Assembly (NCBI RefSeq): GCF_004766055.1 | Contig: NZ_SPQR01000013.1 | Location: forward strand, 53,829-85,828 | Origin: Desulfosporosinus sp. Sb-LF | GTDB taxonomy: Bacteria; Bacillota; Desulfitobacteriia; Desulfitobacteriales; Desulfitobacteriaceae | Reading direction: 5' to 3' | DNA length: 32,000 nt | Made by a program: the position numbers and the translations under genes | Notes under the pieces: model-generated | Told to the model about the DNA's origin: nothing | Databases searched by the model: none | Seen by the model: the letters and a program-made list of their open reading frames with translations, nothing else | Shown here: piece after piece, positions 10,103 to 27,149 of the stretch | Layout: every line of letters begins with the position of its first letter | Numbering within the stretch: the stretch's first letter is position 1

Positions 10103-12544
10103 ATGAAGGGTCGTTACACTGAACGTGCAGAGAAAGTCTTAGCGATAGCCCATAACGAAGCCAAGCGGATGGGACATCCCGTGGTTGGGACGGAACACAT
10201 TTTGCTGGGACTGATTCAAGAAGGCGAGGGAATTGCTGCTCAGGCATTAACAGGCATGGGCTTAGATCTGGATAAGATTCGCAGTCAGGTTGAACAAATC
10301 ACTGGAGTTGGTCAGCCTAACAACGGAGAAGTGGCGTTTACACCGCGTGTCAAAAAGGTTCTAGAGTTGGCGAATGAAGAAGCACATCGCCAAGATGTCA
10401 ATTATATCGGGACAGAACACCTTCTCTTAGGTTTAATCATGGAAGGGGAGGGAATTGCAGCCCGCATTTTAGCAAACCTCAATGTGAGTCCGGAAAGAGT
10501 ATGGAAACAAGTGGTTAAACTTTTGGGTGGAGAATTGGATGAATCAGCGATCCCTGCGTCCAATGCCATACCGACGTCGAAAAATGCTGGTCCTGCGAAT
10601 ACACCCGCGCTCAATGAGTTTGGAAGGGATCTTACACTGCAAGCTCGCGAAGGTCGCCTTGACCCAGTGATTGGAAGAGAAAAAGAAATTGAAAGAGTTA
10701 TCCAGGTCTTAAGTCGACGTTCGAAAAACAATCCAGCCCTGATTGGGGAACCTGGTGTCGGTAAAACAGCCATAGCTGAAGGATTAGCGCAGGGAATTGT
10801 TAGCAATCGGGTACCTGAAACCTTGATTAACAAACGAGTGATTACGTTAGACCTTTCGGCGATGGTCGCTGGAAGTAAATACCGCGGTGAGTTTGAAGAG
10901 CGCTTGAAGAAGGTTATGGAGGAGATTCGCGCGGATGGAAATATTATTCTATTCATTGATGAATTACACACCCTTATTGGAGCAGGGGCTGCAGAAGGTG
11001 CGATTGATGCGGCGAATATTCTAAAACCTGCCTTGGCCCGAGGTGAGCTTCAGTGCATCGGGGCCACAACCTTAGAAGAATACCGGAAATACATTGAGAA
11101 GGATACGGCTTTAGAGCGCCGTTTCCAACCAATCACTGTGGGTGAACCGACTGTCGAAGAGGCCATTCAGATTCTTTTCGGGTTACGAGATCGTTATGAG
11201 GCTCATCATCGGGTGAAGATTTCAGATGAAGCGATTGAGGCAGCGGCTCGACTATCCGATCGGTATGTCGCCGATCGATTCTTACCAGACAAAGCTATTG
11301 ATTTAATGGATGAAGCCGCATCACGAGTTCGTCTCGCTAGTTATACCACACCGCCTGATTTAAAATTACTTGAAGAAGAAACTGGACGCCTAAAGAAAGA
11401 AAAAGAAGCGGCGGTTTCCAGCCAGGAATTTGAGAAGGCGGCGCAAATCCGTGATCAAGAACAAAAACTCCGTGTAGAGCTTGCTGAACAACGAGAGCAA
11501 TGGCAGAATCAGCGTTACAAAGACAATGCGATGGTTACTGAAGATGATATAGCTCAGATTGTGGCGAGCTGGACGGGAATCCCTGTTAAGAAGTTAGCCC
11601 AGGAGGAAAGCGAACGCCTCCTGCATTTGGAGGAACTCTTGCATCAACGGTTAATCGGACAGGAGGATGCCGTTACAGCAGTGGCTAGGGCGGTCCGCCG
11701 CGCTCGGGCAGGATTAAAAGATCCCAAGCGCCCAATAGGCTCCTTTATCTTTCTTGGACCAACAGGGGTCGGGAAAACTGAACTAGGTCGTGCCTTAGCA
11801 GAAGCAATGTTCGGGGATGAAAAGGCATTGATTCGCATCGATATGTCGGAGTATATGGAAAAACATGCGGTCTCTCGGTTAGTAGGAGCGCCTCCGGGAT
11901 ATATCGGACATGACGAAGGGGGTCAACTTACTGAATCGGTAAGACGTAAACCCTACAGTGTGGTTTTGCTAGATGAGATAGAAAAGGCACATCCTGAAGT
12001 GTTTAATATTTTACTGCAAGTACTTGAAGATGGGCGGCTAACAGACACTAAGGGAAGGACCGTCGATTTTCGAAATACGGTGATCATCATGACTTCCAAC
12101 GTGGGATCGTCCTTCTTGAAGAAGGAAGCAATGGGGTTCGCTCCGAAAAAAGATGAGAAAACTGATTATAAAAATATGCGTGGACATGTTATGGAAGAGC
12201 TTAAGCGCTCTTTCCGACCAGAGTTCCTAAATCGTATTGACGAGTTAGTAGTTTTCCATTCCCTCCAAGAGGAACATTTGGAGAAGATCACGGAAATCTT
12301 GATGAGCCAGGTAAACAAACGGTTGAGTGATCATGGCTTGGATTTACAGACTGAGAAAAGTGCCATTAAATTGATTGCTAAAGAGGGAAATGATCCGGTT
12401 TTCGGAGCTCGTCCAATCCGGCGTGCCATCCAACGTTTGATCGAAGATGCTCTTTCTGAGAAAATTATCGAGGGAGAATTTAAAGCCGGTGATAAGATCG
12501 GCGTTGAAGCAGTAGATGGGAAAATGAAGTTTTCTAAGAAGTAA
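10103..12544 (+). CDS. clpC: ATP-dependent Clp protease ATP-binding subunit ClpC
   Basis: Clp_N repeats. Two AAA modules are present ([16 protein letters not shown]), along with a middle UVR motif ([11 protein letters not shown]). 813 aa. Confidence 0.96.
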
Positions 12545-12607: not shown

Positions 12608-13996
12608 ATGAAGACCAAGATGATTTACAGATGTTCTAATTGCGGATCAGAAAGCCCTAAATGGATGGGTAAGTGTCAAAGCTGTGATTCTTGGAATACC
12701 TATGAAGAAGTAATAAGTCAACCTAAAACGACATCTTCAAAGAGTCAAAGAAAGACATCCGCCAAGAGATTATCTGAGGTTTTAGCGGGAAACAGTGATC
12801 GGATTGTGACGAGTATTCATGAATTTAACCGAGTTCTGGGTGGGGGAATCGTTCGAGATTCCATCATCATCTTGACTGCAAGGCCAGGCGCAGGAAAATC
12901 AACGTTGCTCCTGCAAGTGGCCGATGATGTTGCTTCTAAAGGATACAAGGTTCTATATGCTTCTGCCGAAGAAAGTGACAGTCAAATTAAAAATAGGTCA
13001 GACAGAATCCTAAATGGAAGTAGGAGCAACATCTGGTTATATTCGGATACAAGCATGAATAACGTTCTTGATTCGATTGAGGAAATAGACCCAGATTTGA
13101 TTATCATCGATAGTATCCAAACCTTTACTCTCCAAGAGCACAATTCCCGCCCAGGCTCACCCATTCAGACGATGGAGTGTGCTAACGAACTCTTAAAAGT
13201 AGCAAAGAATAACAGCCGTCCCAGAGCCGTAATCATGGTCGGGCAAATGACGAAAGATGATGAAATAGCCGGACTACGGGCCTTAGAGCATCTTGTCGAT
13301 GCTGTGTTAATCTTGAACGGTGAAAATGGGGAAGAATTGCGGGGAGCCTGGTGCTCCAAGAACAGATTCGGGAGCACGGGCGAAATAGGCTTTTTCTCCA
13401 TGACCGAACAAGGGATGTTATCGATTGACAATCCATCTGAGTTTTTTATGACTCAAAGAGGAGAGGGACAAAAAGTTTCAGGTAGTGCTTTAGCCGTCAT
13501 CAAAGAGGGGACACGCCCGATTATCGTGGAAATTGAAAGTCTGGTCTCGAAGTCTTTTACACCCTATCCGTCAAGAATTGCAGAGTGCTTGAGAAGAGAT
13601 CAATTAAATACTCTGATTTCGATTTTGGAACAAAGAGGGAAGATTAATCTCTACGATAAAAATGTTGTGATTAAAACCACAGGTGGGCTTCAACTTAAAG
13701 AACAAGCGGTAAGTTTGGCCATCATTATGTGTATTGTTTCCTCGGTGAAGGATAAAGCAATTCCCAATGACACAGTGTTTGTAGCGGATGTGGGACTTAC
13801 TGGGGAACTCAAAAAGGTACCTTCGATTGAGGCACGTATAAGAGAAATAGATCGGATGGGATTCAGACGTGTCTATGTCGCAAAAAATACAGTCAGAGAT
13901 GTAGCGAGGTTTAAGAATCTGGAAATCATAGAGCTCAACACGTTGTATGATGTGATTATGCACTTGAATATGAAGACTGTAGCTAAGGATCAATAG
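12608..13996 (+). CDS. radA: DNA repair protein RadA/Sms (divergent)
   Basis: N-terminal zinc ribbon CSNCG...CQSC. Walker A reads ARPGAGKSTLLLQ. The RadA signature KNRFGSTGEIGFFSM is present, followed by a Lon-like C-terminal domain. It occupies the canonical position after clpC. Confidence 0.85.
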   Translation: MKTKMIYRCSNCGSESPKWMGKCQSCDSWNTYEEVISQPKTTSSKSQRKTSAKRLSEVLAGNSDRIVTSIHEFNRVLGGGIVRDSIIILTARPGAGKSTLLLQVADDVASKGYKVLYASAEESDSQIKNRSDRILNGSRSNIWLYSDTSMNNVLDSIEEIDPDLIIIDSIQTFTLQEHNSRPGSPIQTMECANELLKVAKNNSRPRAVIMVGQMTKDDEIAGLRALEHLVDAVLILNGENGEELRGAWCSKNRFGSTGEIGFFSMTEQGMLSIDNPSEFFMTQRGEGQKVSGSALAVIKEGTRPIIVEIESLVSKSFTPYPSRIAECLRRDQLNTLISILEQRGKINLYDKNVVIKTTGGLQLKEQAVSLAIIMCIVSSVKDKAIPNDTVFVADVGLTGELKKVPSIEARIREIDRMGFRRVYVAKNTVRDVARFKNLEIIELNTLYDVIMHLNMKTVAKDQ

Positions 13997-14190
13997 GATG
14001 GCTTCTAATGTTGATAGAGCGAACCTCATAGTTAATCGTCTCAATAGCTGGACCCGGAAATGGTTATGTAGGCAGGCCTGAGTGTTTTTGATCTCATCAA
14101 AGAGTTAGGAATTATGAGGTTTGTTGAGATCCGTATATAGTTATCCCATAATACTATAGAGTTATCGTTATTTAGTAGGGGGTTAGAAAC

Positions 14191-15198
14191 ATGGAGATAA
14201 CGTTGAGAGAAACTAAAATTACGCAAACATCCACTCACTTGATGGCGAGTGATATTATAGGTTCATGGAAGGCCCGTTGGGGAATTGGTCGAATGAATTA
14301 TAGGGTTGAGCCTGGCCTTTATAGCGTGGGAAAACCTGACAGTAATTCGCCTGTCTTGGTTTCAGCTAATTACAAACTCAGCTTCGATATGTTAAGAAAA
14401 GAATTAACGGGATTGGATGTCTGGATTTTAATCCTCGATACTAAGGGGATTAATGTGTGGTGTGCTGCGGGAAAGGGTACATTTGGAACGAATGAGCTAT
14501 TGAACCGTATTACACTTGTTCAACTAGGGAAGGTAGTTTCTCACAAAACGGTTATTTTGCCACAGTTGGGGGCACCGGGGGTGAGTGCTCACGAGGTTTC
14601 AAAGTATTCGGGTTTTAAGGTCCTTTATGGCCCGGTGAAGGCAAAGGATATAAAGGAATTTCTCAATTCGGGAATGAAAGCTACCACTGACATGCGGACG
14701 GTCAAGTTCGAAGTCTACGATAGACTGGTTTTGACGCCTATAGAATTGGTCGGTACTTTTAAAGTTTCTTTAATGATTTTTGGCATACTCTTTATCTTAA
14801 ATCTCCTTGGCGTGGGACCGTTTGGTGGGGTTGATCTCTACGCCTATCTGGGCGCCGTCATCGCAGGATGTGTTTTAACCCCAATCTTGTTGCCCTGGGT
14901 CCCTGGCAGGGCTTTCTCCTGGAAGGGTTGGGTCGTAGGATTTATTTGGGCCGTCGCAGTGAATGTACTTAATGGTTGGAATGGATGGACGGCTGTACCA
15001 CAATATGGTTTATTGAGAGCTTTGGGATATCTGCTGATTTTGCCGTCTGTATCAGCGTTTTATGCCATGAACTTTACCGGATCTTCGACGTACACTTCCT
15101 TTTCAGGAGTTTTGAAAGAGATGAGAATAGCAGTTCCAGCGATAGTCATTTCTATTAGCTTAGGGATCGTGTTGATCCTGATTAACAGCTTTATTTAA
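14191..15198 (+). CDS. hgcA: Mercury methylation corrinoid protein HgcA
   Basis: The diagnostic cap-helix motif GINVWCAAGKGTFGT is present. The N-terminal corrinoid-binding domain reads WGIGRMNYRVEPGLYSVG...SPVLVSANYKLSFD. The C-terminal half has multiple TM helices. GGGGG RBS. Confidence 0.9.
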   Translation: MEITLRETKITQTSTHLMASDIIGSWKARWGIGRMNYRVEPGLYSVGKPDSNSPVLVSANYKLSFDMLRKELTGLDVWILILDTKGINVWCAAGKGTFGTNELLNRITLVQLGKVVSHKTVILPQLGAPGVSAHEVSKYSGFKVLYGPVKAKDIKEFLNSGMKATTDMRTVKFEVYDRLVLTPIELVGTFKVSLMIFGILFILNLLGVGPFGGVDLYAYLGAVIAGCVLTPILLPWVPGRAFSWKGWVVGFIWAVAVNVLNGWNGWTAVPQYGLLRALGYLLILPSVSAFYAMNFTGSSTYTSFSGVLKEMRIAVPAIVISISLGIVLILINSFI

Positions 15199-15220
15199 CC
15201 TAGTAAGGAGTTGATTTTCC

Positions 15221-15520
15221 ATGAGGCATCAATATTTAAAGAATGTTACGACGTTGAAACTGAAGTCGGATAGGTGTAAGGGCTGTGGAAAGTGTCTTGA
15301 GGTTTGTCCGCATAAGGTATTTTCTTTAAATAATGGCAAATCAGATATCGTCGATATAGATCGATGCATGGAATGTGGTGCGTGTGTTAAAAACTGTCCG
15401 TTTAATGCATTAGAAGTAAAGCCAGGTGTTGGTTGTGCTTTCGCGATCATTATGGGCTGGCTGACTGGAACTGAACCGAGCTGCGATTGTTCGGGTGACA
15501 ACGGCGGAAGTTGCTGCTAG
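15221..15520 (+). CDS. hgcB: Mercury methylation ferredoxin HgcB
   Basis: Two CxxCxxCxxxCP motifs are present (CKGCGKCLEVCP, CMECGACVKNCP). A conserved mid-protein Cys (GVGCAF) and the C-terminal vicinal cysteines (...GGSCC) are also present. The gene lies immediately downstream of hgcA. Confidence 0.88.
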   Translation: MRHQYLKNVTTLKLKSDRCKGCGKCLEVCPHKVFSLNNGKSDIVDIDRCMECGACVKNCPFNALEVKPGVGCAFAIIMGWLTGTEPSCDCSGDNGGSCC

Positions 15521-15546
15521 CTGGTCAGATGGCATACAAAATAATT

Positions 15547-15583
15547 AAGTCCCATGCTAACAATTTGTAGCATGGGACTTTTT
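15547..15583. terminator. Rho-independent terminator shared by hgcB and the convergent nitroreductase gene
   Basis: 13-bp perfect stem AAGTCCCATGCTA / TAGCATGGGACTT followed by a T-run. Confidence 0.8.
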
Positions 15584-15620
15584 GAATACTCCTAGTAACC
15601 TTATTCTACTAACTTTTTTA

Positions 15621-16145
15621 TTAGAACGTCTCATACCAAACCGTGTTATCAATACTCTTGCGTAAGGTACTATGTCTCTCCGAGGATACTGGTTCGCTGG
15701 CTGAATATCCTATTGCTAAAATATTTAATGGCTCGAAATTATCGGGTAGTTTAAATTCGTCTCGTATAATTTTCTCATTAAAATAACAAATCCAACACGT
15801 TCCCAGTTCTAGCTCTGTCGCTTGCAACATCATATGATCAGTTACAATGCTAGCATCAATCTCAGCGATATCTTTACCATCGTGGGGCCTTTTCCATGAA
15901 ACACTATGGTCAGCACAGATGATCAACGCTAGAGGTGCCCCATATACATTGGCGCCTTTGGCCAGTTTCTCTAATCCCTCTTTCTCTCGAATAACAAGGA
16001 TCCTTTGGGGTTGAGTATTTGCGCCAGTAGGAGCAATTCTACCTGCCTCAAGGATCTTTTGTAATTTTCCCTCGTCGACCTTTTTGGGTCCATACTTACG
16101 TATTGAAGATCTTTTTTTAGCCAATTCCAAAAAACTCATTTGCAA
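15621..16145 (-). CDS. Nitroreductase-family protein (FMN-dependent)
   Basis: RSSIRKY...APTGANTQPQRILV is typical of the nitroreductase fold. 174 aa. Confidence 0.85.
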   Translation of the reverse strand: MQMSFLELAKKRSSIRKYGPKKVDEGKLQKILEAGRIAPTGANTQPQRILVIREKEGLEKLAKGANVYGAPLALIICADHSVSWKRPHDGKDIAEIDASIVTDHMMLQATELELGTCWICYFNEKIIRDEFKLPDNFEPLNILAIGYSASEPVSSERHSTLRKSIDNTVWYETF

Positions 16146-16265
16146 TCACCCTTTCAGATATTAGCAATTATTATAGCAGAAATAAAATCAGATATGAAAT
16201 GTGAGTACCATGAGTACTGAAATGGGGCAATGAACTTGGCAAAGAGAAGAAATTAAGGATATCTC

Positions 16266-16292
16266 AGTTATCTCAGAAATTCTAAGATAACT
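16266..16292. promoter_or_regulatory. Inverted repeat, a candidate operator upstream of the DsrE-like/reductase operon
   Basis: AGTTATCT-N11-AGATAACT, about 65 nt upstream of the start at 16357. Confidence 0.3.
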
Positions 16293-16356
16293 CTTTTGCG
16301 CATAGGTATTTAGTGATAAACTGGTATAAATAAAAAATTATAGTTGGAGGCAAGAT

Positions 16357-16698
16357 ATGATGTCATTTGCTTACTTAATCACCTCAGATACCATTGGCCA
16401 TCAAGATTCGGAACTGGGTAAACGCCTGATGCACAGTTTCTTCATTAAGCTCTTGGAGGCTGCTGAGAAACCATCCCATATTCTCTTTCTCGAAACTGGT
16501 GTTAAGCTTCTATTACCCGAATTTACGGCTGTTGATGCCCTGAAGATTTTAGCGGAGGAATTCGGTGTAACACTGTTGGCCTGTGTAACCTGTCTAGATT
16601 ATTACGGTATCAGGGATAAGATCGAGGTCGGTGAGGTTTCCACCATGCACGAGATTATCAATGTTATGCACCAAAGCAATAAAGTGATACATATTTAG
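16357..16698 (+). CDS. DsrE/DsrF-like protein, resembling the C-terminal domain of YedF-type sulfur/selenium-relay proteins
   Basis: 113 aa. The pattern is ITSDTIGHQDSELG...ILFLETGVKLL...LACVTCLDYYG....IHI. GGAGG RBS. Confidence 0.65.
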   Translation: MMSFAYLITSDTIGHQDSELGKRLMHSFFIKLLEAAEKPSHILFLETGVKLLLPEFTAVDALKILAEEFGVTLLACVTCLDYYGIRDKIEVGEVSTMHEIINVMHQSNKVIHI

Positions 16699-16724
16699 AG
16701 AGTCGAAACGAGGAGGAAAAAAGA

Positions 16725-17993
16725 ATGGATAACAGAGAATTATGGACAGCCCTGGGGATGGATTTAGAGAAACATGATGATTTCCTGGCCCCTATTCCAG
16801 AGGTTTATACGAACTTATTTTTAAATCGGCCTAATCGTCCGAAAGCGATGGGGTATTTTGACATGGTAGTTGGAGATGTGCATGGGATTCGCGTGCACGA
16901 ACTTTATGCCATGAAGGAAGCGGGAGCTAAGGTATTCTCGACCTTTTGCGTCTATGTTCCAGAGGAAATTGTCGTGGCAACAGGGAGTGCCAGCATTGGA
17001 TTATGTGCTGGGGCCCAGTATACGGTCTCTTCAGGAGAAAAAGTCTTGCCTCGCAACCTTTGTCCGCTGATTAAGTCCACTATGGGCTTTAAACTTGATC
17101 GAATTTGTCCGTATTTTCAAATCTCCGATTGGGTCATCGGGGAGACGACGTGTGACGGAAAGAAGAAAGCGTGGGAAATTCTCAATGAACACATCCCGAC
17201 CTATGTGATGGAGCTCCCGCAAAAGAAAGAAGCTAAAGACGCCCGCCTATGGGAAGAGGAAGTGCGTGAATTTGCCTCCTTTATTGAGCGCGAGACTAAG
17301 GTTGACTTAACTGCTGAGAATCTTGCCCAGGGTATCCAGACGATTAACAATAAACGTCAAGCACTTCAAAGGTTAGCCAATCTGAGAAAACATAACCCAG
17401 CCCCTATTCAAGGCTTAGATGTTCTGCTGATCAATCAACTCTCCTTCTTTGACGATCCAGTGCGCTTTACTGCTCAAGTCAATGCTCTGTGTGACGAACT
17501 AGATGAGCGAGTTAAGGCGGAGATTGGAGTGGCACCTGCTGATGCACCTAGGATTTTAGTGACGGGAACTCCGCAACCGCTTCCAGCTTGGAAACTTCAT
17601 GCTTTAATCGAACAAGCCGGGGCAGTCGTCGTTGGAGAGGAAACTTGCACGGGAGAGCGCTATTATAAGGACGTCACTGAGTCTGCGGAGAACGTATCGG
17701 ATATGCTCGCTAATATTGCTAAGCGCCCCTTAAAGGTGAATTGTGCTTGTTTTACGCCAAATCAAGGACGTATGGAAGACATTACTCGCATGGCCGAAAC
17801 TTTAAAAGCCGATGCCGTGATTGATTTTACCCTTCAGTTCTGTCAGCCCTATGGCGTGGAAAGCTATTTTGTGGGTAAGGAAATGGAAAAGAAAAAAATT
17901 CCTTTCTTGCGCTTAGAAAGCGATTTTTCTGAAGAGGATCAGGGGCAACTCTTGACCCGAATTGAAGCCTTAATCGAGATGATTCGCGCATGA
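16725..17993 (+). CDS. 2-hydroxyacyl-CoA dehydratase/BcrC/HgdB-family protein (single-subunit, double-cubane-cluster-type anaerobic reductase architecture)
   Basis: 422 aa carrying the family-typical Cys motifs (GLCAG, NLCPLIK, GETTCDGKKK, EETCTGERYY, QFCQPY). AGGAGG RBS. The gene is followed by an activase gene that overlaps its stop codon. Confidence 0.85.
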   Translation: MDNRELWTALGMDLEKHDDFLAPIPEVYTNLFLNRPNRPKAMGYFDMVVGDVHGIRVHELYAMKEAGAKVFSTFCVYVPEEIVVATGSASIGLCAGAQYTVSSGEKVLPRNLCPLIKSTMGFKLDRICPYFQISDWVIGETTCDGKKKAWEILNEHIPTYVMELPQKKEAKDARLWEEEVREFASFIERETKVDLTAENLAQGIQTINNKRQALQRLANLRKHNPAPIQGLDVLLINQLSFFDDPVRFTAQVNALCDELDERVKAEIGVAPADAPRILVTGTPQPLPAWKLHALIEQAGAVVVGEETCTGERYYKDVTESAENVSDMLANIAKRPLKVNCACFTPNQGRMEDITRMAETLKADAVIDFTLQFCQPYGVESYFVGKEMEKKKIPFLRLESDFSEEDQGQLLTRIEALIEMIRA

Positions 17994-18730
17994 GGCAAGC
18001 AGGGTTAGACCTTGGCTCGGTTAATACGAAGTTGGTTGTCTTAAATAATGGGGAACGAATTTACAGCCGAGTCATACCCTCCCGTTTCGATTCTGTCCAA
18101 GCGGGTATAACCTTATTAAAGACCTATGTCGAAGAACACGGAGAGAAACCTGACAAGCTCGTGGTCACAGGGTATGGACGAGTAAACTTTCCAGAGGGTC
18201 GGGTCATTACAGAAATTACTTGTCAAAGTAGAGGGTGTCACGCCTATTTTCCAGATAATGCGCACATTCTCGACTTAGGGGGGCAAGACGCTAAGGTAAT
18301 TAAGAAAAATGCCGAAGGAAGAGTCGTTCAGTTCATTATGAATGACAAGTGTGCCGCCGGAACGGGGCGTTTTTTGGATGTTATCCTTAAGGGATTGGAT
18401 CTAACGACGGAGGAGCTGGATTTAGCTGCAGAGGCTAAGCCAATGCCTATCAATTCGATGTGTACGGTTTTCGCTGAATCGGAAGTCATTACCCTGCTTG
18501 CCAAAGGGATTCCAAAACCCGAGGTGATTGCAGGTCTCTTCAAAAGCACGGCCAAACGTCTCGCTAATTTTGTCGAGTCTGTCGGACATCCCGATGATTT
18601 AATTTTCACGGGTGGAGGCGCACATTATGGTCTCCTAGTCCACTTTCTTGAACAGGAGTTAAAGGCGAAGATTATAATACCATCGGAGCCTGAGTTAACC
18701 GCTGCTTTAGGCGCAGCATCCCTTGCATAA
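17990..18730 (+). CDS. Acyl-CoA dehydratase activase-type ATPase (BcrA/BcrD/HgdC family)
   Basis: Contains the ASKHA-fold motifs GLDLGSVNTK, DLGGQDAKVI and NDKCAAGTGRFLD. ATGA overlap with the upstream gene. Confidence 0.88.
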   Translation: MRQAGLDLGSVNTKLVVLNNGERIYSRVIPSRFDSVQAGITLLKTYVEEHGEKPDKLVVTGYGRVNFPEGRVITEITCQSRGCHAYFPDNAHILDLGGQDAKVIKKNAEGRVVQFIMNDKCAAGTGRFLDVILKGLDLTTEELDLAAEAKPMPINSMCTVFAESEVITLLAKGIPKPEVIAGLFKSTAKRLANFVESVGHPDDLIFTGGGAHYGLLVHFLEQELKAKIIIPSEPELTAALGAASLA

Positions 18731-18792
18731 AAATAACGGTAGCACTTGCTTACCGATTTGATTATGATTACCGGTCGAAAGGCAGTCGGTAT

Positions 18793-18864
18793 TCCGGGAT
18801 GGTGGTGGTAGCACATGTGTTTCTGGAGCATATAGCCTGGGTTCGAATCCCAGTCCCGGAGCCA
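18793..18864 (+). tRNA. tRNA-Gln (anticodon CUG)
   Basis: Hand fold. The acceptor stem TCCGGGA/TCCCGGA has U1-A72, followed by G73 and an encoded CCA. The D stem is 3 bp (GTG/CAC). The anticodon loop is TTCTGGA. The T arm is CTGGG-TTCGAAT-CCCAG. Confidence 0.7.
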
Positions 18865-18872
18865 AAACACAA

Positions 18873-18947
18873 GGCCCCATGGTCAAGCGGCTAAGACGTC
18901 GCCTTCTCAAGGCGAAATCAGGGGTTCGATTCCCCTTGGGGATACCA
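18873..18947 (+). tRNA. tRNA-Glu (anticodon CUC)
   Basis: Hand fold. The D arm is GTC-AAGCGGCTAA-GAC. The anticodon arm is TCGCC-TTCTCAA-GGCGA. The T arm is AGGGG-TTCGATT-CCCCT. CCA is encoded. The acceptor stem GGCCCCA/TGGGGAT has a G1-U72 wobble and a G2-A71 mismatch. Confidence 0.75.
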
Positions 18948-19031: not shown

Positions 19032-19370
19032 ATGGTTAATATTACAGAACTCGCAGCACAAAAGGTCAAAGAGGTGCTAAAAATGCAAAATAAAGAAGAT
19101 GCATTTCTTCGTCTCTATCTTGCAGGGTCTGGTTGTAGTAGACCGAATTTTGGCATGACTCTGGATGAATCCAAAATGGATGAAGATATTCTTGACGAAG
19201 AATTTGGTGTTAGAATACTCACGGATCAAAAACTTTCTATTTATTTAGAGGGAGCCATCATTGACTTTGTCGAGGCAAATGGCAGTGGGGGTTTCGAAAT
19301 ACGTACGGCAAAGATCTCTGATGGCGGAAGCTGTGGTGGAGGTTGTGGTGGCTGCAGCGGAAGCTGTTAA
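19032..19370 (+). CDS. HesB/IscA-family iron-sulfur cluster carrier-like protein with a Cys/Gly-rich C-terminal tail
   Basis: ITELAAQKVKEVL...LRLYLAGSGCSRPNFGMTLDE...ILTDQKLSIYLEGAIIDF is a typical IscA fold. The tail is GGSCGGGCGGCSGSC. AAGGAGG RBS. Confidence 0.8.
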   Translation: MVNITELAAQKVKEVLKMQNKEDAFLRLYLAGSGCSRPNFGMTLDESKMDEDILDEEFGVRILTDQKLSIYLEGAIIDFVEANGSGGFEIRTAKISDGGSCGGGCGGCSGSC

Positions 19371-24518: not shown

Positions 24519-24641
24519 GTTGATAAGACAAGAGCTAACTAATGGTCTATTGTAAGTTCCGGATTAACGGTCGTGAAAGAAATCCCTTTCATTAGCTTAA
24601 GTAATTGATGCAACATGTTTAACCGTAGGAGGTCAAACACA

Positions 24642-25568
24642 ATGATTGAAAATTTATTTACTCATGCCAGTTCATTATTTATAGCAACCAATGTTGCTGT
24701 AGCGCAAGCAGCTGGTACACCTGGAGTACCATGGTGGGTGTGGCCTCTTGCCTTACTAGTGACGACCTTTCTGATTGGGATAGTCGCTTCGCTAGCCGGA
24801 GTTGGCGGTAGTGTACTGTATGTGCCAATTGTCAGTAGCTTTTTCCCGTTTAACTTCGATTTCATTCGTGGCTCTGGCTTGTTTGTAGCACTTGCATGTT
24901 CGTTGTCTGCAGCGCCCAAACTATTAAAACTAAATTTAGCAAGCCTGCGCCTGGTTATTCCCTTAGCTTTAATTGCTTCATCCTCAAGTATTGTAGGCGC
25001 ATATTTAGGACTTTCCTTACCGCAAAGTATTCTTAAGATTTTATTAGGCGTTTTAATCACAGGTATTGCAGTTCTTTTCATTTTCTCCAAAAACAGTGAG
25101 ATCCCCGTAATCGGAACTCCTGACCCCTTAACCCGATATTTAAATATCGGAGGTGCATATTTCGAGCCTTCTAATGGTAAAAATGTTACTTGGTCTGTAT
25201 GGAGACTCCCAATTGGACTGGTACTTTTCTGTTGTATTGGAATTATCGCTGGAATGTTCGGAATCGGTGCAGGCTGGGCTAACGTGCCAGTACTCAACAT
25301 GCTTCTGGGTGCACCCCTTAAAATTGCTGTTGGCACTAGTATGTCATTGTTGGCCATCACAGACACTTCAGCGGCATGGATTTATTTGAACCAAGGTGCG
25401 GTGCTTCCTATCATAACGATTCCATCTGTTTTAGGAATTATGGTGGGCTCGCGGGTTGGTGTTATTCTATTAAAAACTGCTAAGCCGAAATCTATCCGGT
25501 ATATTGTTATTCTCATGTTATTGTTCGCTGGATTGAAGTCTTTATTAGCAGGATTAGGATGGGGGTAA
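24642..25568 (+). CDS. TauE/SafE (TSUP) family anion permease
   Basis: Shows the two-fold repeat typical of TSUP proteins (GVGGSVLYVPI... and GIGAGWANVPVLN...). TAGGAGG lies 9 nt upstream of the ATG at 24642. A hydrophilic insert of about 35 aa lies between the two halves. Confidence 0.88.
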   Translation: MIENLFTHASSLFIATNVAVAQAAGTPGVPWWVWPLALLVTTFLIGIVASLAGVGGSVLYVPIVSSFFPFNFDFIRGSGLFVALACSLSAAPKLLKLNLASLRLVIPLALIASSSSIVGAYLGLSLPQSILKILLGVLITGIAVLFIFSKNSEIPVIGTPDPLTRYLNIGGAYFEPSNGKNVTWSVWRLPIGLVLFCCIGIIAGMFGIGAGWANVPVLNMLLGAPLKIAVGTSMSLLAITDTSAAWIYLNQGAVLPIITIPSVLGIMVGSRVGVILLKTAKPKSIRYIVILMLLFAGLKSLLAGLGWG

Positions 25569-26795: not shown

Positions 26796-27149
26796 TTAAT
26801 AATTATGTGTACCTATAACTACTGGCTTGCCGAATTTCCCTTCCAGTTTCGTTTTAATACCGTTGAGGTCAATGGGACAGGCGGAAGTGTTTCTAGCCCT
26901 AACTACACAGGTACCGATATGAATAGCATCTATATCTTGTAACAAATAATCAGCCATTTCCATAACTAATCCAACTTTAGGCATAACTAAACCAGGGCAA
27001 TCGCCACAACCACTGAGACCCGCAATCTGAACGGTGTCATACTTTGCAAATTCACCTTCTTTAAGCGCAGCAGCTTTAAAACACTTCAGGCAAGCAATAC
27101 AACTGACATCACGAATTTTAGTGCAGGATACAATTAGAATATTAGCCAT
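26796..27149 (-). CDS. CGGC-domain protein (putative metal-binding, uncharacterised family)
   Basis: 117 aa. VSCTKIRDVSCIACLKCFKA...LSGCGDCPG...HIGTC matches the CGGC-domain pattern, with GCGDCPG in place of GCGGCPG. AAGGGGG RBS. Confidence 0.8.
   Translation of the reverse strand: MANILIVSCTKIRDVSCIACLKCFKAAALKEGEFAKYDTVQIAGLSGCGDCPGLVMPKVGLVMEMADYLLQDIDAIHIGTCVVRARNTSACPIDLNGIKTKLEGKFGKPVVIGTHNY

Follow-up and report, generated by a model that had tools for sequence, protein, structure and literature searches.

Double-cubane cluster proteins (DCCPs) are nitrogenase-like, ATP-driven, ultra-low-potential reductases, and no physiological substrate has been assigned to them since the first description in 2018. 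The papers on DCCPs give the physiological function as unknown, report the reduction of acetylene, azide, and hydrazine in vitro, and do not mention DsrE, YedF, or selenium. The protein from Carboxydothermus hydrogenoformans (DCCP_Ch) reduces small molecules, has channels too narrow for coenzyme A (CoA) esters, and, when produced in Escherichia coli, carried a complete double-cubane cluster without a carrier-type partner (PMC7317905). Haft and Gwadz (2022; bioRxiv 10.1101/2022.07.06.499078) built the NCBIfam model NF040772, placed 955 of 970 DCCPs in SelD-positive genomes, and observed that DCCPs adjoin the SAO locus, to which the DsrE-like SaoD belongs. Their proposals were that DCCPs process selenium compounds or that the cluster is bridged by selenium; neither YedF nor DUF3343 is mentioned. 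A provisional link to selenium metabolism has also been drawn for a “dicubane cluster protein” (PMC10418091). In Lin et al. 2015 (PMC5322559), a STRING table for Slackia connects an “activase” with both YedF and DUF3343, and a “2-hydroxyglutaryl-CoA dehydratase subunit” with YedF; the retrievable passages of that paper give these links without discussion. How bacteria convert oxidized or protein-bound selenium to the selenide needed by SelD is unsettled.

Here, we compare these systems with a three-gene operon of Desulfosporosinus sp. Sb-LF, located at positions 16357 to 18730 of a 32,000-nucleotide (nt) stretch of contig NZ_SPQR01000013.1 (the window, whose numbering is used throughout). The operon encodes a small DsrE-like protein, a DCCP, and its ATPase partner, DCCP-R. 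Our best reading, to which we give about an even chance, is that it would encode an ATP-driven reductase mobilizing selenium (or sulfur) together with a cysteine carrier. The operon adds gene-neighborhood evidence to the earlier bioinformatic suspicion, from two preprints, of a DCCP-selenium connection. The reductase pair belongs to a known family, and the carrier-led arrangement of three genes appears to be new: neither the DsrE-like-DCCP-DCCP-R trio nor a DCCP-DUF3343 adjacency was found described in the searchable literature, in agreement with a preliminary description of the locus that knew of no experimental account of the combination. The observations in that description were confirmed, and its interpretation was partly supported.

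Identity of the three proteins

The operon comprises the following features, the first three being open reading frames.

16357-16698, + strand: DsrE-like gene (gene 1), 113 amino acids (aa)
16725-17993, + strand: DCCP gene (gene 2), 422 aa
17990-18730, + strand: DCCP-R gene (gene 3), 246 aa
16710-16716, + strand: ribosome-binding site GAGGAGG of the DCCP gene, read from the sequence, inside the gap after gene 1 and 8 nt before the start

On sequence grounds, these three co-directional genes form one real operon, encoding a putative small cysteine carrier, a DCCP, and an ATPase. A gap of 26 nt separates the DsrE-like gene from the DCCP gene, and an ATGA stop/start overlap at 17990-17993, through which DCCP-R is predicted to be translationally coupled to DCCP, joins the other two. 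Pfam assigned the three products, far above chance, to DsrE (PF02635; 33.9 bits versus a gathering threshold of 22.7), HGD-D (389 bits), and BcrAD_BadFG (153 bits). The three reading frames, the overlap, the upstream hgcAB/nitroreductase block, and the downstream tRNA pair are all as first reported. Homologues of the DsrE-like protein begin at the second ATG, which corresponds to 112 aa for the window copy.

The 422-aa protein scored 486.4 bits on NF040772 (“double-cubane-cluster-containing anaerobic reductase”; cut-off, 350) and matched the C. hydrogenoformans DCCP (PDB 7YYL_C and 6ENO_A) with an E value of about 1e-217, sharing 72.4% identity with DCCP_Ch over a gap-free alignment of residues 1-421. 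These matches bear out the earlier assignment of a single-subunit HgdB-family protein to the double-cubane type, as an orthologue of the Carboxydothermus protein. Cysteine conservation, proposed earlier as a check, was judged by position-by-position comparison with DCCP_Ch in place of the published regular expression, and all cysteines of the window protein (75, 94, 113, 128, 143, 256, 308, 340, 342, and 373) have identical residue numbers in DCCP_Ch. They include the seven-cysteine motif of DCCPs (Cys 75, 94, 113, 143, 308, 342, and 373), in which six residues ligate the cluster and the seventh, Cys94, does not (PMC7317905). Used literally, the published motif CX19CX18-19CX29CX166-170CX32-34CX32C matched 0 of 35 DCCPs, including the Carboxydothermus islandicus orthologue, and it misfits DCCP_Ch by residue numbers too; the real spacings, read at window 16725-17993 and at L153:8001-9266, are X18, X18, X29, X164, X33, and X30. 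The window protein also has the N-terminal extension of class I (about 420 aa, versus the YjiM-type class II), which closes the channel and marks proteins with a narrow channel and small substrates (class definitions from PMC7317905), and its gene is adjoined by that of a cognate ASKHA ATPase reductase.

This evidence identifies the 422-aa protein, by homology, as a class-I double-cubane [8Fe-9S] cluster protein, the likely catalytic reductase component; the [8Fe-9S] cluster and ATP-dependent reduction are predicted for it. We rejected its identity as a two-subunit 2-hydroxyacyl-CoA dehydratase or benzoyl-CoA reductase: scores of 51 to 96 bits stood against cut-offs of 421 to 700 (HadC, 95.9 versus 700; BzdN, 75 versus 454; BcrC, 51 versus 421), and there was no paired subunit. 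The window holds a single HGD-D gene and no alpha-subunit gene of the two-subunit dehydratase type. The protein therefore does not group with the two-subunit dehydratases, an outcome that the preliminary description had named as a test of its reading.

The 246-aa protein scored 212.2 bits on TIGR00241 (acyl-CoA dehydratase activase domain; cut-off, 125.4) and matched PDB 7YYL_E (E = 3e-86), with 58.8% identity to the C. hydrogenoformans ATPase (DCCP-R_Ch). The activase of the preliminary description is, by these matches, the cognate ATPase. In the alignment, its Cys121 and Cys158 correspond to Cys115 and Cys152 of DCCP-R_Ch, and we take them, from what is known of HgdC-type activators, to be ligands of the inter-subunit [4Fe-4S] cluster. 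We identify the protein by similarity as DCCP-R, an ASKHA-type [4Fe-4S] ATPase (“archerase”) that is predicted to feed electrons to DCCP.

The product of gene 1 was described at first as DsrE/YedF-like, and the Pfam assignment, the YedF match, and the fold all agree. On TIGR03527 (selenium_YedF), it scored 107.4 bits against a cut-off of 110 and aligned only to model positions 88-194 of 194, covering the whole C-terminal domain of YedF end to end with its CxxC in the same place. Full-length YedF proteins are about 190 to 205 aa long; the N-terminal TusA/SirA-like domain with CPxP was absent from the 113-aa protein, which gave no PF01206 match. Both cysteines of the C76-V-T-C79 (CVTC) motif are invariant in 23 homologues of the DsrE-like protein, and the counterpart of the motif in YedF is CGxC (CGTC). 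Homologues from a word-indexed search were 111 to 116 aa long and came from Desulfosporosinus, Dichloromethanomonas, Acididesulfobacillus, and other Desulfitobacteriaceae/Peptococcaceae. An exhaustive profile search with the small protein returned 2,422 representative clusters, only two of them at E ≤ 1e-30 and both of 112 aa; the next matches were mostly proteins of 190 to 205 aa aligned by their C-terminal halves, that is, full-length YedF.

The AlphaFold (AF2) model of the DsrE-like protein has a pLDDT of 96, and Foldseek placed it closest, among PDB folds, to DsrE (2HY5_A, 4e-6), TusD (2D1P_A, 2e-5), and YchN (1JX7). In the model, C76 ends strand 72-76 and C79 lies in the first turn of helix 77-83; C76 is a candidate counterpart of the persulfide-carrying Cys78 of DsrE/TusD. 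The sequence profile of the small protein reached only 2FB6 in the PDB (E = 0.79) and did not reach DsrE or TusD. Identity with SaoD was rejected (NF040732; 16 bits versus a cut-off of 169). We conclude that gene 1 encodes a predicted stand-alone copy of the C-terminal DsrE-fold domain of YedF with an invariant CxxC.

Gene neighborhoods and proposed function

Across 80 genome loci encoding DCCP relatives (cited below by L number), the DCCP/DCCP-R pair was the constant core in the close tiers. For the clade count, we used DCCPs at least 69% identical to that of the window, for which 24 loci had enough flank. The DsrE-like gene lay within about 0.8 kb of DCCP in 12 of these (L001-4, L007, where it is frameshifted, L008, L013, L017, L018, L020, L027, and L030), so the conservation beside the reductase that the preliminary description had asked about holds for these and fails for the other 12, as well as for C. 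hydrogenoformans Z-2901, where a bare DCCP/DCCP-R pair sits between methylaspartate ammonia-lyase and glycine-cleavage genes. In most loci, the gene precedes DCCP on the same strand; L018 has it in divergent orientation, and L013 has it after DCCP-R. A second sample consisted of metagenome loci picked by small-protein similarity. Relatives at least 72% identical (L081-L091) had DCCP adjacent, except in L084, which has an activase fragment only; in L087, a ferredoxin-thioredoxin-reductase-like gene is inserted between the DsrE-like gene and DCCP, and the partner in L091 is a DCCP paralogue of just 42% identity, accompanied by OsmC. Relatives 53 to 68% identical had no DCCP in the available flanks. 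The linkage between the DsrE-like gene and DCCP outlasts rearrangement, and the pairing of the trio is real and recurrent but facultative and lineage-restricted.

Three loci show decay. Frameshifts affect DCCP in D. paludis SB140 (L027:6001-7265) and the DsrE-like gene in Desulfosporosinus sp. FKB (L007:2585-2927); in metagenome contig L084 (6004-6839), DCCP is deleted, leaving the DsrE-like gene beside a truncated activase.

Other DCCP clades have other small putative carriers as neighbors. In the sister clade L036-L080, whose DCCPs are 50 to 55% identical to that of the window, a gene for the PF11823/DUF3343 “putative Se/S carrier” starts 3 to 331 nt past the DCCP stop in 45 of 45 loci (for example, L047:7292-7552, L053:7279-7542, and L064:7256-7507; two examples scored 74.6 and 62.9 bits on PF11823). 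A class-V aminotransferase of the NifS/Sec-lyase type is also adjacent in 24 of the 45. The hosts include Clostridium, Dorea, other Lachnospiraceae, Syntrophomonadaceae, Syntrophaceticus, and Thermacetogenium. In Halanaerobium L034, the order is DCCP, ECF-S (CD3073 family), a TudS-related protein (CD3072 family), a C-GCAxxG-C-C (seleno)protein, a TehA-like transporter, full-length YedF (211 bits), and, directly after it, a second DCCP (518 bits); the L035 cluster additionally holds SelD, and Halocella L156 reads NifS-YedF-?-DUF3343-SelA-DCCP-C_GCAxxG.

Within these Halanaerobiales loci (L034:7282-9919, L035:7279-8465, and L156:11737-14384), the DCCP gene is followed by those for the ECF S component, the TudS-related putative desulfidase, the (seleno)protein, and a TehA/SLAC1-like transporter, neighbors suggesting that a small heterocycle may be imported and desulfurated or deselenated. 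Two tandem reading frames near the L035 DCCP (10294-11039) look CGGC-domain-like by eye, one of them without an NCBIfam match.

The sister genomes place the operon close to selenium genes. In D. lacus L028, a DCCP/DCCP-R pair without an adjacent DsrE-like gene lies 2 to 5 kb from NifS(-)-selD-yedF-DUF3343, and metagenome contig L085 has the complete trio at the same distance (2 to 5 kb) from this cluster. The slot after clpC-radA in D. youngiae L157 is filled by NifS-selD-yedF-DUF3343-IscA-like; this is the position of the trio in the window, with the same IscA-like gene on the far side. The operon had been called an orphan, which is overstated, as in sister genomes it lies in or next to the chromosomal slot of the selD-yedF-DUF3343 cluster. 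A separate full-length yedF stands beside selD in sister genomes. Full-length YedF is also found beside selD/selA/selB with no DCCP nearby, so YedF is primarily tied to selenium genes, with DCCP as a frequent guest. In Desulfitobacterium sp. THU1 (L158:1-2409), genes for a corrinoid protein, a URO-D/MtaA-like protein, and a pterin-binding protein lie about 3 to 7 kb upstream of NifS-selD-yedF-DUF3343 and resemble the mlp cluster of PMC10418091.

The carrier pairings and sel clusters back the sulfur/selenium hint of the preliminary description, which also agrees with the published provisional link. As in the C. hydrogenoformans system, DCCP-R would use ATP hydrolysis to drive an electron out of its own [4Fe-4S] cluster and onto the [8Fe-9S] cluster in the DCCP homodimer, and the latter cluster would then reduce a small substrate reached via narrow channels. 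The neighborhoods suggest that the system works in chalcogen trafficking, most likely of selenium, with DCCP reductively freeing selenide for SelD-dependent pathways from an oxidized or bound form; candidate substrates are Se(0), perselenide, selenotrisulfide, or a small organoselenium compound. The DsrE-like protein may bind the chalcogen through its cysteines, whether to hand it over or to catch the toxic product, a role apparently filled by DUF3343 or full-length YedF in other DCCP clades.

Several points weigh against selenium mobilization with a dedicated carrier. No experiment ties any DCCP to selenium or sulfur, and the 32-kb window is without selD, selA, or full-length yedF. The narrow substrate channels disfavor a protein-bound cysteine perselenide as direct substrate. 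Relatives of the small protein at 55 to 60% identity (L097, L099, L100, L103, and L107) lie in hemA-hemC-X-hemB-radical SAM (SPASM) operons without DCCP, so the small protein is not DCCP-specific; its gene, which half of the clade and C. hydrogenoformans lack, is therefore dispensable or replaceable. Most cases of adjacency come from Desulfitobacteriaceae, and the counts are thus inflated by inherited synteny.

Some of these points suit an alternative without functional coupling, which we consider rather improbable: a general thiol/persulfide protein would be co-transcribed with DCCP in one lineage by inherited synteny, and the DCCP substrate would have no connection with either sulfur or selenium; an unsaturated or nitrogenous small molecule would be an example. 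Presence in only 12 of 24 loci, absence from Carboxydothermus, the heme-operon relatives, and in vitro activities known only with acetylene, azide, and hydrazine would all fit, as would the decay (frameshifts in L007 and L027 and the deletion in L084). The identities of the two proteins co-vary (r = 0.91), as expected of any two vertically inherited genes. However, the linkage is kept through three arrangements and in a case where the DCCP is a different paralogue, YedF or DUF3343 has come to adjoin DCCP independently in distant lineages (45 of 45 loci in one clade), and SelD co-occurs with DCCPs in 955 of 970 cases.

The carriers might instead serve the enzyme and not its substrate. In such a scheme of cofactor maturation or repair, which we regard as unlikely, the DsrE-like protein would be a sulfur (or selenium) relay for inserting or replacing the bridging mu2-sulfide of the [8Fe-9S] cluster, a task that elsewhere would belong to DUF3343, the NifS-like desulfurase, and the IscA-like protein. 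The DsrE fold is a persulfide-relay fold, NifS-like desulfurases are classic Fe-S sulfur donors and adjoin 24 of 45 DCCPs, an IscA/HesB-like A-type carrier is encoded just downstream of the operon, and Haft and Gwadz listed a selenium-bridged cluster as a formal possibility. The scheme is weakened by the formation of holo-DCCP_Ch in E. coli without carriers (PMC7317905). Also against it, C. hydrogenoformans has no such neighbor, half of the clade is without the DsrE-like gene, and the NifS-YedF-DUF3343 set clusters with selD/selA/selB even where DCCP is not nearby.

Sulfur in place of selenium, with the operon reducing persulfide, polysulfide, or organosulfur and the DsrE-like protein in the role of a classical sulfur carrier, strikes us as quite improbable. 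The DsrE/TusD fold and CxxC motif would fit such a carrier, and the host belongs to a sulfur-metabolizing genus, sulfate- or sulfite-respiring Desulfosporosinus, which the idea suits. Rhodanese genes flank YedF in Halobacteroides, and the mlp preprint (PMC10418091) allows methyl-sulfur roles for related clusters. In contrast, the small protein is closer to the selenium-linked YedF family than to Dsr or Tus, neighbors elsewhere are selD, selA, selB, and the C-GCAxxG (seleno)protein, and DCCP distribution follows SelD. Ordinary reduction of S(0) or persulfide, moreover, is not known to need an ATP-boosted reductant.

Selenium mobilization by the window operon could be one case of something wider. 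It is conceivable, although we are doubtful, that class-I DCCPs supply the missing, ATP-driven step in how bacteria assimilate selenium, with interchangeable cysteine carriers. DCCPs would reduce Se(0), perselenide, or selenotrisulfide, or cleave small organoselenium, to give selenide for SelD, and the role of carrier would fall to DUF3343 in Clostridia, to YedF in Halanaerobiales, and in the window operon to the stand-alone YedF-C/DsrE-like protein. In a more radical version, the carriers would load selenium into the bridging position of the cluster. The operon and the carrier pairings offer a concrete, directly testable candidate answer to the questions of DCCP substrate and selenide supply, using proteins of solved structure, and, if true, it would give functions to three widespread “putative Se/S carrier” families.

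Upstream region and flanking genes

The following features lie around the operon.

16266-16292: inverted repeat AGTTATCT-N11-AGATAACT, read from the sequence
16290-16350, + strand: promoter-like conserved block, with an extended -10 TG-A-TAAACT at 16314-16322 (TGATAATAT in orthologues)
16346-16350, + strand: ribosome-binding site GGAGG of gene 1, in the conserved block
18737-18755, + strand: tentative terminator-like hairpin just past the operon, weak and with a poor T-tract
14191-15198: hgcA, upstream flank
15221-15520: hgcB, upstream flank
15621-16145, - strand: nitroreductase, upstream flank
18793-18864: tRNA-Gln, downstream flank
18873-18947: tRNA-Glu, downstream flank
19032-19370, + strand: IscA/HesB-like protein with a Cys/Gly-rich C-terminal tail (TIGR00049, 64.2 bits versus a cut-off of 58.8)

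Nucleotide homology to the sister loci ends after radA (about 13987) and restarts at 16276-16301. In the sister loci L001, L002, L008, L083, L088, and L089, radA is followed by about 0.6 kb and then the DsrE-like gene, and hgcA-hgcB-nitroreductase is absent; the break at 13988-16275 thus marks these three genes as an insertion relative to the sister genomes, with the inverted repeat spanning its right-hand junction. In the window, the housekeeping block ctsR-mcsA-mcsB-clpC-radA lies farther upstream of hgcA. No other DCCP locus examined has hgcA, and together with the insertion this makes the “accessory redox neighborhood” of the preliminary description coincidental, as it is radA that precedes the operon in sister genomes. 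We rejected hgcAB as a functional neighbor on the same two grounds. The hgcA product itself scored 502 bits on NF040863, and several in-frame stops lie just 5' of its ATG (13951-14250), so this HgcA has no PCUGP selenocysteine N-terminal extension, which most HgcA proteins carry (Haft and Gwadz 2022).

The inverted repeat, reported earlier as private to the operon, is present, and its suggested role as an operon-specific control element did not hold up. It was found in none of the 9 orthologous upstream regions examined, and of its two arms, the left falls in window-specific DNA and the right within the conserved promoter region. The window contains 65 perfect inverted repeats of 8 bp with spacers of 3 to 24 nt, for an expectation of about 0.4 in the 211-nt spacer. 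The repeat is real and probably fortuitous; a function as operator was rejected on its non-conservation, the chance expectation, and its junction position. Upstream conservation in the ortholog alignment is limited to the last ~75 nt, which contain an extended -10-like motif and the ribosome-binding site. The block at 16290-16350 was read by eye as a putative extended -10 promoter, and a sigma-70 consensus scan gave no convincing + strand promoter there. Rfam at gathering thresholds, searched for a riboswitch or leader RNA, yielded the two tRNAs only.

On the downstream side, the tRNA-Gln/tRNA-Glu pair has no counterpart in L088 (8399-8446), where the IscA-like gene directly follows DCCP-R; the tRNAs are accordingly another indel of a variable slot. 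The IscA-like gene comes after the operon in L088 (8595-8909), lies downstream of it in L027 (11075-11365), and follows selD-yedF-DUF3343 in D. youngiae L157 (7925-8266). The window copy fell below the cut-offs of the selenium-linked models NF038090 and TIGR01911. It may share a variable “selenium slot,” and its membership in the operon is only a candidate. The window also encodes a TauE/SafE sulfite-exporter-family protein (24615-25568) and a CGGC-domain protein (26796-27149).

Comparison with described systems

HgdAB/HadBC with their activator and class I benzoyl-CoA reductase belong to the same superfamily as the window pair and share its archerase-type, ATP-driven electron injection; unlike them, the window reductase is predicted to be of the single-subunit homodimer type. 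DsrEFH/TusBCD and YchN are the best structural matches of the small protein, which in the model has a cysteine at the strand-to-helix junction. Unlike DsrEFH/TusBCD, it has no adjacent DsrF/H or TusB/C paralogues, shares only 18 to 20% identity, and has a CxxC pair versus a single active cysteine. The SAO locus likewise places a DsrE-family CxxC protein, SaoD, near NF040772 proteins and has a selenium connection (Haft and Gwadz 2022); no sao-type genes turned up in family scans of the main open reading frames of the window.

YedF (TIGR03527) is closer, with likeness in its C-terminal domain and the place of its CxxC, and the closest relatives of the window protein outside its own subfamily are full-length YedFs. 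Unlike YedF, the window protein lacks the TusA/SirA domain, has a CVTC motif, scores below the family cut-off, and adjoins DCCP instead of selD. The DCCP-DUF3343(-NifS-like) cassette of Clostridium, Dorea, Syntrophomonadaceae, and others likewise combines a class-I-length DCCP, an activase, and a small cysteine-bearing putative Se/S carrier. It differs in that its carrier is of the unrelated family PF11823, in the place of the carrier gene, which either separates DCCP from the activase or comes right after DCCP, and in its constancy, with DUF3343 in 45 of 45 sampled sister-clade loci versus the DsrE-like gene in about half of the window clade.

The nearest described system is the C. hydrogenoformans DCCP/DCCP-R pair (CHY_0487/0488; PDB 6ENO and 7YYL; Jeoung and Dobbek), which the window pair resembles in gene order, tight coupling, class I extension, and cysteines. 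Unlike that pair, which has no DsrE-like or DUF3343 gene, the window operon is led by a gene for a YedF-type carrier.

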